DNA of 64,000 nucleotides from Euglena gracilis (GCA_039621445.1 CP154954.1:24688954-24752953); one strand, 5' to 3'; numbered from the stretch's first letter, positions 2,191 through 62,859 are shown. A program made the numbers and translations. Notes: generated from the sequence alone by a model not told the origin.

Positions 2191-4592
2191 ACCCGACTGG
2201 CGGTACCGCCGCCGCTGCGGCCGACGGGGACGACGACGCCAGCTTCCCCCAGGCCCCGGTGGCGGGGTTGGGGCCGGCCGGTTTAGGCCAACCCTGGGCA
2301 CCGCTGCGGCTGCCCTCTCCCCTTCGCATGAGGTGAAGGTGAAGGTGAAGGGTGGGTGTGATCTACAAAAAAAAACAGTCTCTGGCCAAGAATTCGACCT
2401 GCAGCGCGTGACGTTGAAGAGCTGGTAGCATGACCCCTGGTTCTGGGCGGTCCTTTGGTGGTTAGAGGTTTGTGTGCCCCCACCTCAAACGCTGCTCCCG
2501 ATATAACTCCCCCCGGGTGTGTGGCCCCCCTCCTCCTTCCATTCAAACTTGGCGCCCCTAAAGTTGGCCTTCGGCCTTTTGCACATTGCCGCCAAAGTCA
2601 TTAACATGCAAACTTGACCCCCCCCCCTAAGGTTGGCCCCTGGCTTTACCTTCAATCATGGCCCAAGCCAAGCGCCCGGGGGGAGGGGTGACAATCAGTT
2701 TTCCATTCTTTCCTCCAACTCTTCAGAAATGAAAGCAATTTCCAGCTCATGGTTTCTTGATTCTGCGCCTGTTTGTGAGTAAATTCAGTGTTGCCGTCCA
2801 TGCCCCCAAACCAGAGATCAGGTCGAAAATCGAAGTCGTAAACGAGTTAATTGTTTTTTCTCCGAAAGTGCCTCCACATAGACACCTGTGGGATCCTGGT
2901 ATTCATTCATTAAAGAAAGGGTGGGCAGAACTGCACAATCTTGCTTTTTTTCAGAGTGACTGTTACTTTTTGGCTCAAACCCCTCCCCCTCCCCCAGGAA
3001 GGGAGGTTGTCAAAAGCCACCAAAGCAAAAGGCGCTGAAAGCGCCAGAAAGAATTCATTCCGGACATTTTCTTCCCATTTGTGCTAATTTCCCTTGGATT
3101 CCAGAGGGACCGATCGGGGGGTCCCGACTGGTTTTTAGAAAAGAGCGACCGGTTTTCGGAAGGGTGGAAGTGCCCCCCCTTCCTCCTCCAAGCGCCTCCC
3201 CGCAGGACCACGACTGGGTATACAATCACTCAGTCATTGGCCGACCCCGGGGGGGGGGGGGGGGGGTGACTGGTTTGAAGAGTGGAGTGACCCCCCGGGG
3301 GTAAAAAAAAATTTGTATGGACCCGGGGCCTGCCCCATCAGCCACCACATCCTGTCGGAGGACGACGAGACGTGTTCGTCCCTGTCCCAGGCGAGCCACG
3401 CCCGGCCACGGATGCGGCGCAGCACGCTGCTGACGTTCCGCGTCCGAGCGACGCCGCTGACCCCCAAGCGGCAGAGCGGCCCAGCCGCCCAGCCATTCAG
3501 CTACCGGATCGCCACCGTGGGCTCTCCCAGCAATTTCCCCCCCCCAACCCTTTCTCTCCCTATTTGAACCTCCCAAGCAGGGGTTTTTTTAGTCTTGGAC
3601 CCCCTCCCCTGGAGGGAGGGGGGGGGGCAGGGTGGGTGGGTCCCATGGACCCCCTCCCCCCCAGTGGGCTGGTGAGTATATCTTTTTCGGCGCCAAAGGC
3701 ACCGAAAATTTTGAAAACGGTGCTATTTTTAGCAGTTTTGGCCGTTTTCGGGCAAAAGTAGGTGGGTCCCCCGGGACCCCCCCCCACCTCCCCCAGAGGG
3801 GCCCCACCCCAGGGGGTGGGCGGGTGGGTGCCAACCCCCTCCCCCCCCCAGTCTTAAAAAAACCCCTGCTCCCAAGTACCAATGCCAACATATGAAACAG
3901 CCCATTTGATGCCGATTTATCGATCAAATAACCCGTGAATTTGCATCTTGAAAACTCTTGATTTTGGTGGATTGGGGTCCGGTTTTTGAATTACGTGTGG
4001 CACACCGACCCTCCGTTTGTTGAGTTTAACAATTGTATGGTGATGAACACCTGGATGGATGGTGCATTGTTCTGGGGTTTTTGGCATGTCGCCGAGTTGT
4101 GAAACCCCCGGGATTACCCTCCCCGAAGTGAAAAAAATTGACAAAAATATAAAAAACCCCGGAACCCTCTTTCCTGCGTAACAACTACCAGCACCAGGTG
4201 GTTTTCTGGAGGTGGGGTGGCAGGTCCACCCCTTCGCTTGCTTTCTGAAGCCCTGCACCACTTAGGCGGCGTAGCTCGCGCTTATGTGTGTGATCTGTGG
4301 GAATCAGGTCCAGGTGGGCCCATCCGCCAGCGTGGCATACGTTCCCGAGCCCAAAGCGTCCTCCATGCTGCACAGCACCCACCTCAAGAGGGGTAGCCTC
4401 GGTTTCCCTGCCATGGATCATGTCAATCCCCCCGACCAGCCTGATTTGTCCTGCACGCTGTTGCCCTCCCCCTTTCCGCCATTCAGGCTGCCCTCAGCCC
4501 TGTGGCACAAGAAGACCTGCCAGAGCCGGAGTATTATATCTGAGCCACCGACCGGTCTTCACCCCTGCCAGTTTTTAATTCCGTGCCATTGA
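2191..4592 (+). CDS. Hypothetical protein, 3' exons of a spliced gene (exons ~2191-2332, 3342-3516, 4308-4592)
   Basis: GC-rich islands joined in frame by GT-AG introns 2333-3341 (ATG AG|C CAC) and 3517-4307 (ACC|GTC). Stop at 4590-4592. No recognisable domain; 5' end not located. Confidence 0.55.
3578..3868. mobile_element. MITE with CAGGGGTTTTTTT TIR and 8-bp TSD
   Basis: Ends CAGGGGTTTTTTTAG / CTTAAAAAAACCCCTG; CTCCCAAG on both sides; sister copy at 30269-30558. Confidence 0.9.
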
Positions 4593-4930
4593 GTGGCGTT
4601 TTGGCCACTTCTATCAGTGTTTGCTGCACAGCCCAATTGAATCTCCATTCCATCTCTCCGACCCTTCTTCCCCCTGGGATCGAAGTCCTGCCGAACCCCA
4701 CACTGGACCACCAGGGCTGGACTCCGGGGTTGTTGGGGGGCTGGATTCCCATGCCCAGCCTGAGTTTCTTGAGTGGTCCTTGAAGGGAGTTATGGTGGTG
4801 GTGCGGCAGCAGCCACCATGGCAACAGTGGGATGGATAGGGACAGTGCCGTGGGGTTGCTTCTTCCACACGCTGCTTCTTCCAAACGCTGGGGCACAGTT
4901 GAGATGCTGCCAATAGACTCTCCCCCAGAT

Positions 4931-61600: not shown

Positions 61601-62859
61601 AAGCTACAGAGATATATGCCATACCGAACTGAACTGCCTGGCAGTTCCAGATGCAGCAAAATACACAAATCCAACCCCCCCTGCCAGAGACCCCCCACCC
61701 GCCTGGGAACACACCATGTGTTTGACGTAGTTTTCCGCCGACCCACCGGTGACTCCGTGCAGGATGATCAGCGTGGGTGCCGCCTCGAGCGACGCCGAGC
61801 GCAGTTCCTCCAGGGGCACGGTCCAGTCCAGCGCGACGCTCCCCCCGCACCCGGGGTGTGGCTTCCGTGTGGAGAGCAGCCCCCCCCCCCCCCCATGGCC
61901 AGCCAGCTCCCCCCCAGGGTGTTCTCCAATGCTGGCGTACACCCAGCAGGTGTGATGGCTGGCACCCGTGGCATCACGCGAATCTTTTGTGAAATTGTCG
62001 CAGATTCATGGCCACCACGCAATTTTGCAAGTTTTTAGGGCCATAGATTCACTTGCTCAAGCATCGGACAGTGACAGTACTTCGTCGTTGGACAATTTGG
62101 CCAGGGGGAGATGCAGGAGGGGGGCCCATCCAAAGAAGCCAGGACCCGCACGTCAGACATTCGGGCCAACTCCCTGTGATACTCCACCTGTGGAAGGTAC
62201 GAAAGACCACGACAATCATTACCTCCCAGAAACACTGTGCACTGCAAATGAATGGATCAACCTCCTCCTTCTGTTTGGAAATCTTTGCATGGAGGAATGC
62301 CCCGTGGGAGATCAGCTGGACAGTCCAGTTATCCGCAAGGCGGGGGGCGTATGGACACCCATCTGCACACATGGTGCACTTTCCCATTCGCTGGCCCCCG
62401 CCAGCGATGTGGGGCGCGTCCCACACCCGAGGGCTGCGGCGGAACAGCGACGCGAAAATGGTCTGGAAGTGGCCGTTGGTGCACCACGGCGGCGGCCGGT
62501 AGCACTCGAAGAGGGCCCGGCAGGCCACGACCCAGCGGGCGACCTGCGACCCGGGCGGGGCCAGGGCTGCGCGGGAAGGCCCTGGCCCAGGGGGGGGGCA
62601 GACTTTCATTTGGTGCGCCGCAGCCAAGTTTGCCGTGGCGCAATTTTTTTTTCCGCGGCGCACGCGGTCACAAAACTTCGGTGCCGCGGTGCACGCGGTG
62701 CAGAAAAAATTTTCCGCGGTGCACTAAATGAAAGTCTGGGGGGGGGGGTCAGCCTCCCACACCAGCCATGGCGTTTCCGGGCTTCGGGGTCAGCCCTGCA
62801 CGTGGCCTGCACCTGCGGCGGCTGCGCGAGGTGGCTGCTGTAGTGCGCCGCCCGGAGGG
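52638..62859 (-). CDS. Alpha/beta hydrolase of the ABHD1/2/3-YheT-Eht1 family. Exons ~62859-62802, 62556-62427, 62187-62152, 61846-61715, 61078-61024, 59902-59818, 59580-59505, ~54985-54839, 54138-54026, 53399-53287, 52987-52859, 52645-52638
   Basis: Motifs NGHFQTIF, YHRE..D|GGSVALDW, ILHGVTGGS..NYV, VVFNQRGC, VGFSMGANVLVKYLGE (catalytic Ser), EFD..TAP.FGF..YY, NAEDDPI (Asp), GGHIAWLEG (His). Start codon unresolved (possible ATG at 62952 across a homopolymer). Confidence 0.92.
52646..52858 (-). other. MITE / probable nonconventional intron just before the stop codon
   Basis: ccc-CAGGGCTGTGCGGG...CCCGCACGCCCTG-ccaat; flanks CCCGTCCC/CCAATCCC. Confidence 0.65.
52988..53286 (-). other. Nonconventional intron
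   Basis: G|gac-CAGCGGC...GCCGCTG-cggcc|AA gives ALAS-EHVAMVTTRCGGH. Confidence 0.85.
54480..54775. repeat. (CA)n microsatellite
   Basis: Directly visible. Confidence 0.96.
56879..59218. mobile_element. TIR-bounded composite: palindrome arms flanking a tandem array
   Basis: CAGGGTTACGGTAGGAGGATG / CATCCTCCTACGGTAACCCCCTG; GGGGGCAAT near both ends; arms made of ~43-bp CTCGAG-rich units. Confidence 0.7.
57372..58885. repeat. Tandem array of 16 units of 78/79/98/112 bp
   Basis: CAACTGTTCGAGGGCCCCAAAATAACAAA (or a close variant) recurs at 57374, 57453, 57551 ... 58826. Confidence 0.95.
59903..61023 (-). other. Nonconventional intron
   Basis: GGCT|gcc-CAGGGTGGAC...GTTCGCCCTG-gggct|GT restores QRGC-GDSKLTSP; flanks GGGCTGCC/GGGCTGTG. 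Confidence 0.9.
61847..62151 (-). other. Nonconventional intron (CGG...CCG) that begins with GT
   Basis: GAC|gtg-CGGGTCCTGGCTTC...GAAGCCACACCCCG-ggtgc|GGG restores D|GGSVALDW. Confidence 0.88.
62557..62801 (-). other. Nonconventional intron of the CAGGGCTG family
   Basis: AC|gtg-CAGGGCTG...CAGCCCTG-gcccc|G is in frame (QVQAT-PGSQVARW). Confidence 0.7.

Follow-up and report, generated by a model that had tools for sequence, protein, structure and literature searches.

Flank identity and splice geometry of nonconventional introns in a 64-kb window of Euglena gracilis are consistent with a transposon origin of the CAG/CTG class

The nonconventional introns of euglenids are characterized by borders that do not follow GT-AG, by ends that pair with each other, by CAG at positions +4 to +6 and CTG at positions -8 to -6, by a 3' exon that starts with a purine, and by their coexistence with conventional introns in the same genes. 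An origin from transposable elements of the miniature inverted-repeat kind (MITEs) has been proposed for them (Milanowski et al. 2014, PMC3935182), sequences similar to duplications of the target site (termed TSD-like) have been described at their junctions (PMC11282704), and Nomura et al. 2025 (PMC12501133) gave the splicing code 5'-N3CDG/CH'GN5-6|R, established it experimentally with knock-ins and with fully synthetic 50-bp introns that were spliced from an exon, counted 71.8% of the introns of E. agilis as nonconventional, and suggested that the splicing machinery mitigates transposon insertions. In this work we analysed one stretch of Euglena gracilis nuclear DNA of 64,000 nucleotides (nt) (GCA_039621445.1 CP154954.1:24688954-24752953), which as a whole is called the window, and in which nonconventional introns of this kind lie together with free elements of MITE type. 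The free elements and the nonconventional introns look like two ages of one thing, and we read the partial identity of the sequences flanking the CAG/CTG introns as decayed target-site duplications. In comparison to the published euglenid introns, as far as the excerpts go, nothing in the window is different in kind; what is added is a link between the splicing spacers and an 8-bp duplication, measured on introns whose junctions can slide, a repeat-carrying class that the published motif analysis set aside in favour of non-slidable introns only (PMC12501133).

Removal of an exonic DNA transposon at the RNA level likewise has a precedent in maize. There the Ds (Dissociation) element was reportedly found by Giroux et al. 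in 1994 to be spliced from transcripts as a de novo intron; that removal uses cryptic spliceosomal sites and is imprecise, whereas the introns described here appear to be cut at a fixed distance by a dedicated hairpin-reading code. MITEs of the hAT superfamily share with the elements of the window the 8-bp duplication and short terminal repeats starting with CAG, and differ in that one family here carries 7-bp flush repeats, two introns carry 9-nt repeats, and the 17 open reading frames (ORFs) scanned in the window include no transposase. The hAT terminal motif is YARNG, and an 8-bp duplication is not unique to hAT; the hAT assignment, whose sole basis is the 8-bp duplication and this end motif, is unproven. 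Introners (Micromonas etc.) share the inverted repeats, the border duplication of which one copy is removed with the element, the restored message and the multi-copy families, while they differ in their use of GT/GC-AG borders and the spliceosome and, in Micromonas, in duplications of 3 bp, in contrast to the hairpin-measured cut, arbitrary borders and 8 bp of the present case (PMC11282704, excerpts). The nonconventional introns have arbitrary borders and, unlike introners, show no spliceosomal GT/GC-AG sites contributed by an element or by its duplication, and similarity of ends, another introner trait, was found among four introns and a copy at 17128.

Junctions were defined from RNA and from proteins. 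The RNA evidence covers 33000-52999 and draws on a run of raw RNA-seq reads, on two contig runs presumed to be RNA, and on a DNA-like run; the raw reads bear the same species label, and no run listed as holding the stretch is recorded as RNA. Twelve joints were backed by all three RNA sources and by 0 contigs of the DNA-like run, and three further junctions came from contig loose ends placed in the window; these 15 comprise 13 nonconventional introns, one GT-AG intron (32391-33076) and one weak, ambiguous joint (40952-41124) that was excluded from the counts; it is possibly a GC-AG intron and would then lie on the (+) strand, whereas the gene next to it is on the (-) strand. No back-spliced joints were present among the joints listed for this region. 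Two proteins are 100% identical to the window in many pieces, namely P0001 (EG_transcript_17332, 366 aa, (-) strand, 62851 down to 52896) and P0003 (EG_transcript_6081, 575 aa, (+) strand, 19852 to 33856), and every donor/acceptor pair reproducing them exactly was enumerated, which yielded intron lengths and a narrow range of placements. This mapping added 12 nonconventional and 12 conventional introns, for totals of 25 nonconventional introns in four genes and 13 conventional ones. An intron was classed as nonconventional when no transcript-compatible placement offered a conventional GT/GC-AG option, and the 13 that have one were kept separate. A previous reading of the window from sequence only (the sequence-only reading) had inferred about 22 nonconventional introns; such introns are present, but their number is 25.

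For each intron a terminal helix was taken, and several of the helices were mismatched or had competitors and were picked by eye with the 3+5 rule known. A cut placed 3 nt before the 5' stem agrees with the protein, or with the range over which the RNA joint can slide, for all introns but one (24/25), the 25th being 28967-29211, for which an alternative helix was adopted. The number of nucleotides removed beyond the stems is 8 in 21/25 introns; of the remaining four, two lose 9, and one each loses 10 and 11. With the alternative helix for 28967-29211, a purine is the first nucleotide of the 3' exon in 24/25, the exception being 39589-39932. The same proportion (24/25) fits a rule of N3, stem, stem, and a cut before the first purine at or after +6, and in the CAG/CTG introns that remove 9, 9 and 11 nt only pyrimidines are found from +6 to the cut, followed by a purine. 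The position of the 3' cut thus seems to depend on where the first purine from +6 onwards lies, in agreement with the published code (PMC12501133). The complementary CDG/CH'G motif, taken strictly, is present in 14/25 introns, near the published 61.2% (PMC12501133, excerpts). The expectation that transcript junctions lie at N3/N5 was thus borne out for most nonconventional introns by RNA and protein mapping, and seven of the eight junctions named beforehand fit transcript or protein, while the one given as 52646 is off by three: the RNA border is at 52643 and does not slide, so that 11 nt (8+3) and not 8 are removed. The 25 introns are as follows, with the removed spacers as 5'+3' nucleotides and the identity of the flush flanks.

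19924..20004 (+), 81-nt CAG/CTG intron; 3+6=9 nt removed; flush 9-mers 8/9; P0003 mapping
20044..20631 (+), intron with CTG/CAG stem; 3+5; flanks 6/8; P0003 mapping
20710..21324 (+), intron with weak CTG/CGG stem; 3+5; flanks 4/8; P0003 mapping
21414..23116 (+), intron with CGC/CCG stem; 3+5; flanks 1/8; P0003 mapping
24121..24691 (+), CAG/CTG intron; 3+5; flanks GCTGGGAG/GCCGGGAG 7/8; P0003 mapping
24728..25365 (+), CAG/CTG intron; 3+5; flanks 5/8; P0003 mapping
26556..26746 (+), CAG/CTG intron; 3+6=9 nt removed; repeat in 9-nt register 6/9; P0003 mapping
28967..29211 (+), intron; alternative 4-bp CCGC/GCGG helix gives 3+5 and flanks 4/8; first helix incompatible with the protein
29285..29508 (+), intron with weak GGG/CCC stem; 3+5; flanks 4/8; P0003 mapping
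33170..33802 (+), CAG/CTG intron with 8-bp stem; 3+5; flanks 6/8; RNA joint
34044..34693 (+), intron in 3' untranslated region (UTR), stem GCAGGCTT; flanks 5/8; contig loose end
38169..38576 (-), CGG/CCG intron; 3+5; flanks 4/8; RNA
38682..39510 (-), CAG/CTG intron; 3+5; flanks CCCACGCC/CCCCCGCC 7/8; RNA
39589..39932 (-), intron; 10 nt beyond best helix removed; breaks the purine rule; RNA
40021..40396 (-), intron with CGC/GCG stem including one G-U pair; 3+5; flanks 3/8; RNA
47256..47337 (-), 82-nt intron with CCG/CTG stem including a mismatch; 3+5; flanks 3/8; RNA
47492..48286 (-), intron; 3+5 provided that the RNA departs from the window at 48288; RNA
48341..48973 (-), intron with CAC/GTG stem; 3+5; flanks 6/8; RNA
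49084..49661 (-), intron with CGC/GCG stem; 3+5; flanks 2/8; RNA
49765..50725 (-), intron with 3-bp CAG/CTG stem only; 3+5; flanks 6/8; RNA
52643..52858 (-), intron of the CAGGGC..GGGAA family; 3+8=11 nt removed; flush flanks 6/8; RNA-verified
52988..53286 (-), CAG/CTG intron; 3+5; flanks 4/8; loose end and P0001
59903..61023 (-), CAG/CTG intron; 3+5; flanks 6/8; P0001 mapping
61847..62151 (-), CGG/CCG intron; 3+5; flanks 3/8; P0001 mapping
62557..62801 (-), intron of the CAGGGC..GGGAA family; 3+5; flanks 5/8; P0001 mapping

The 8-mers lying flush with the two stems are more alike than expected. For the 13 RNA-defined introns the mean identity was 4.38/8, in comparison to 2.88/8 for cross-intron pairs, in which the left flank of one intron is set against the right flank of another (permutation p=2.5e-4), and for all 25 introns it was 4.36/8 in comparison to 2.96/8, a value reached by 0 of 200,000 permutations (4.40 in comparison to 3.00 with the corrected helix for 28967-29211); within this test the subset of 13 RNA introns gave p=2.2e-4 and that of 12 protein introns p=3e-4. 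The identity is also confined to one register. For the 13 RNA introns the total was 57 at shift 0 and 28 to 49 at 14 other shifts (-6 to +8), the identities per position from -8 to -1 were 9, 8, 7, 8, 6, 3, 10 and 6 of 13, and at positions -16 to -9 they were only 2 to 6 of 13, the excess ending sharply at -8. A test free of any helix, in which each base near the 5' border was compared with the base one intron length downstream, gave for the 25 introns a mean best 8-nt window of 5.24 in comparison to 4.16 to 4.80 at 14 shifted offsets; six of the 25 reach at least 7/8, where cross-intron pairs do so at a rate of 0.021 (binomial 1e-5), and each of the 11 introns whose best window is at least 6 has that window starting within one base of the position flush with the stem. 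The match of the flanking 8-mers above composition-matched and register-shifted controls, with a repeat that is 8 nt long and flush with the stems, supports the sequence-only reading, and the eight flank identities it quoted were reproduced (7/8 at 24121; 6/8 at 33170, 48341, 49765, 52646 and 59903; 5/8 at 24728 and 62557). The excess is carried by the CAG/CTG introns (n=11), with 5.45/8 in comparison to a null of 3.04/8 (0 of 100,000 permutations).

Free elements with the same CAG...CTG ends and with 8-bp duplications co-occur with these introns in the window, as had been claimed. All eight elements named beforehand were found at the given starts, five with perfect duplications and three with 7/8, and further copies were added, so that at least 12 short non-coding CAG...CTG elements, intergenic or intronic, are present as relics of MITE-type DNA transposons:

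3578..3868, free MITE with ends CAGGGGTTTTTTTA; duplication CTCCCAAG 8/8
13145..13548, free MITE with 17-bp perfect terminal repeat CAGGCTTTTGCTTAAGG; duplication CCCCCGGC 8/8
30269..30558, free MITE, family shared with 3578; duplication AGGGGGGT 8/8; within conventional intron 29598-30741
33373..33496, free MITE of 124 bp; duplication CCCGTGCC 8/8; terminal repeat of 18 bp; lies within nonconventional intron 33170-33802
33572..33718, free MITE with ends CAGGGCTG; duplication TCCCTGGG/CCCCTGGG 7/8; nested in intron 33170-33802
35088..36746, 1659-bp element with ends CAGGGCGGTC; duplication ACACACAA/ACACACCA 7/8, AC-rich; contains nested copy 35605-36061
41800..42304, free MITE with 16-bp terminal repeat CAGGGAATTTCTTAAG; duplication 7/8
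47847..48197, free MITE; duplication GTCTCGAA 8/8; nested in nonconventional intron 47492-48286
62599..62738, additional MITE with ends CAGACTTTCATTT; GGGGGGGG (G8, low complexity) on both sides; nested in intron 62557-62801
24212..24645, additional poly-G MITE, CAGGGGGGGGGGAA..; 7-bp flush repeat CCGACAA; nested in intron 24121-24691
35605..36061, additional poly-G MITE; 7-bp flush repeat CAGAAAT
63206..63651, additional poly-G MITE; 7-bp flush repeat ATAAGTG

The five elements with perfect duplications have CAG...CTG terminal repeats of 14 to 18 bp, one of them with a single mismatch, and since the chance of a perfect 8-mer match is about 1.5e-5 per pair, the duplications are real insertion scars. 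Contigs from many other copies depart exactly after 42304, and word depth in the DNA-like run over the bins that bear MITEs is 2 to 4 orders of magnitude above that of neighbour bins, a depth which is not a copy number. Those free copies that fall within mapped gene models are all intronic, 30269 in a conventional intron and 33373, 33572, 47847, 62599 and 24212 in nonconventional ones. A CAGGG end was found in 6 of the 9 elements compared, with CAGGC or CAGAC in the rest, and the terminal architecture CAGG..TT..TTAAG is common to several free families. This shared architecture means that the free families are not unrelated, contrary to the earlier description of many unrelated terminal-inverted-repeat families. 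The Pfam scan of 17 long window ORFs detected no transposase and gave a single, sub-threshold match, to Maf. The ORF at 88-756, in which a 'TDGA' stretch was presumed to recall hAT-type transposases, was dropped as an unconfirmed candidate after Pfam, Atlas and a homology search were all without a match. A systematic scan for terminal repeats with duplications of 4-12 was overwhelmed by tandem and palindromic repeats and was not used.

Families of terminal repeats are also shared among the introns themselves. The 30-nt ends of introns 19924-20004, 24121-24691, 52643-52858 and 62557-62801 and the copy at 17128 have CAGGGCTGTACGGGAAGGCCTGG.. in common, and their alignment scores were 15 to 26 in comparison to a maximum of 12 over 3000 shuffled pairs. 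The free element 33572-33718 starts with the same CAGGGCTG, yet it is outside the top-scoring end pairs; a fuzzy motif search for the CAGGGC..GGGAA end returned mostly noise and serves as a pointer only. In the four introns of this family the two ends diverge beyond about 16 nt, an asymmetry that hints at an orientation bias and would qualify the earlier proposal that removal works in either orientation. The right end of the 81-nt intron, at 19998, matches the end at 17128 (+) as an inverted repeat in 28/30 positions and is closer to it than to the left end of its own intron (19927); a 2.9-kb composite between the ends at 17128 and 19998, with flanks of 6/8, would take in the start codon (19852) together with exon 1 of the gene encoding P0003, which has a PF13521 domain. 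Most of the inside of intron 24121-24691 consists of a nested poly-G MITE.

Taken in this way, a MITE would insert into a transcribed exon and duplicate 8 bp of its target. The ends of the nonconventional introns pair in the RNA; one cut lies 3 nt upstream of the 5' stem, and the other precedes a purine and in most introns lies 5 nt downstream of the 3' stem. Since 3+5 equals the length of the duplication, a cut measured from the hairpin in this manner would take out the element and one copy of the duplication and give back the message as it was before insertion. Insertion would thereby have created the introns, the original message would have been restored, and insertions into exons would have been made harmless. 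We consider it likely that the CAG/CTG nonconventional introns are derived from MITEs and that removal exact to the scar is the typical outcome.

Several results weigh against this interpretation. No intron among the 25 has a perfect 8/8 duplication, the best being 7/8 in two introns and 8/9 in one. The claim that splicing removes exactly one duplication holds in 21/25 introns, with 8 nt removed, but fails in the four that remove 9, 9, 10 and 11 nt, where an 8-bp duplication would not be exactly restored; for both coding introns with 9 nt removed (19924-20004 and 26556-26746) the repeat itself is in a 9-nt register (8/9 and 6/9). In the poly-G family the 7-bp flush repeats of the copies at 24212, 35605 and 63206 are perfect, and if the C of CAG is counted they become 8/8, 8/8 and 7/8, respectively; with a 7-bp flush repeat a 3+5 cut would not restore the target. 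Several of the helices were picked with the 3+5 rule in mind, and one choice (28967-29211) was shown to be wrong. A preference for pyrimidine|purine at both junctions adds some identity, for which the permutation allows on the set of 25 introns only, and the sample amounts to four genes in one 64-kb window. No young element spliced from an exon was seen, nor any free element in an exon; neither an empty site nor a polymorphic insertion was present among the best-supported joints listed for the DNA-like run. The positive correlation of flank identity with terminal-repeat perfection that had been expected is absent, the identity showing no rise with complementarity over the first 16 stem positions (Spearman -0.35, p=0.08). 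Finally, the other 14 introns are without significant flank identity, at 3.5/8 in comparison to a null of 2.96 (p=0.087).

The last two results also bear on a view in which there are two populations, the CAG/CTG introns derived from MITEs and the other 14/25 (CGC/GCG, CAC/GTG, GGG/CCC etc.) having arisen otherwise, for example from conventional introns that gained pairing ends. The two groups differ in flank identity (Mann-Whitney p=0.002), and an interconversion of intron types has been proposed (PMC3935182, excerpts). However, the mean of the non-CAG introns is still slightly above the null, 14 introns offer low power, and decay of both ends and flanks with age would look alike, so we regard a separate origin of these introns as possible though rather doubtful. 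The signal behind the earlier notion of a MITE-to-intron continuum is accordingly confined to the 11 CAG/CTG introns; the 14 others are indistinguishable from background and a single continuum is therefore not shown for nonconventional introns as a whole.

It was also considered that flank similarity is no scar of a transposon but a by-product of splice-site preference and local composition. The coding sequence is GC-rich and pyrimidine|purine is preferred at either junction; identity in the cross-intron pairs peaks at position 6, which is the junction purine. Border repeats are not confined to nonconventional introns either: the conventional introns of the window reach a best 8-nt window of 5.62 at the true offset in comparison to 3.6 to 4.1 at shifted ones, and short direct repeats were reported at 84.4% of all introns (PMC12501133, excerpts). 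What makes this explanation unlikely is that the cross-intron permutation keeps the position-specific composition and still never reached the observed value in its 200,000 rounds, that the excess over cross-intron pairs in the 25 introns spans positions 1, 2, 4, 5 and 7 and not the junction alone, that in the 13 RNA introns it stops sharply at -8, that it is confined to CAG/CTG introns, and that perfect 8-bp duplications flank free elements whose ends are the same. A reversed direction, in which the dispersed elements are introns spread by reinsertion of excised circles, could draw on the release of nonconventional introns as full-length circles (PMC11282704, excerpts) and on the termini shared by intron and free copies, but it is very improbable, for the free copies carry the long perfect terminal inverted repeats and copy-specific 8-bp duplications that mark cut-and-paste transposition, and a reinserted circle would hold the joined 8 nt internally, which was not seen.

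Some observations concern individual introns and genes. P0001 has alpha/beta-hydrolase Pfam domains, and the stop codon T|AA of this hydrolase is assembled across the nonconventional junction 52642|52859 (-), where an N5 cut as the rule predicts would add two residues ahead of TGA. The joint of intron 47492-48286 contains a single unmatched letter, which suggests that the RNA differs from the window at 48288, among the first exon bases beside the intron; RNA contigs and reads have A there and the window has G, and the mismatch may be a difference of strain or allele, or editing. For P0003 no exact solution was found for the junction between residues 333 and 337 (27352-28879), which was excluded; residues 334-336 are unplaced, and a micro-exon or an allelic difference may adjoin the (TGTA)n array at 28543-28877. 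Removal of its five introns turns the (-) gene at 47010-50821 into a single open frame, the product of which looks by eye like a PEBP-type protein. Reads and contigs run on behind 50821 with GAAAAAAAAT, which we take to be the 3' end of the spliced leader of Euglena in reverse complement; this tail thus indicates a trans-splice acceptor and a gene on the (-) strand. The gene at 38013-40899, with four RNA-verified nonconventional introns, has no clear long open frame in the three (-) frames after splicing and may be UTR or non-coding, or its exons may extend beyond the ends assumed here. One contig that ends at 40899 runs on into 250 nt absent from the window, and a loose end before 40899 is unmatched in the window. 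The conventional GT-AG intron 59581-59817 (-) has at its borders (59576-59823) an 11-nt perfect direct repeat, GGCACCTGTGG, which goes well beyond the AG|GT consensus and is accompanied by no visible terminal inverted repeat; it could stem from another kind of insertion or from a small duplication. Within the 4.5-kb conventional intron 54986-59492 lies a 2.2-kb block (56908-59121) of 43-bp inverted arrays around 34/78/112-bp tandem repeats.

The interpretation is only partly new, as it offers a quantitative link and a sharper test and not a new system. The MITE hypothesis was previously based on inverted repeats and 'TSD-like' sequences, to which the window adds free elements that lie beside the introns, share their ends and have clean 8-bp duplications, an 8-nt repeat flush with the stems in transcript-verified introns, and the arithmetic link 3+5=8. 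No statement that 3+5 corresponds to an 8-bp duplication was found in full-text searches or in the excerpts of the literature text, while figures of these papers (PMC12501133 Fig. 1B and the sliding distances in SI Fig. S3; PMC11282704 Fig. 3D) could show or imply it. With regard to the origin of the nonconventional introns of euglenids and to their splicing machinery, we tentatively put forward, at somewhat less than even confidence, that nonconventional splicing is tuned to one class of DNA transposons, reading the CAG...CTG hairpin with a 3/5 stagger whose sum is that of the 8-bp integration cut, and so acting as an undoing of transposition at the RNA level. If so, an insertion transcribed in sense with a purine at position 6 of its duplication would be erased from the message in one step, the flexible 3' cut at the first purine at or beyond +6 would account for the 9- and 11-nt cases, and the tolerance of hundreds of thousands of such introns would be explained. 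In that case a splicing rule of the host would be matched to the integration geometry of a transposon, and insertions into exons would cost nothing.

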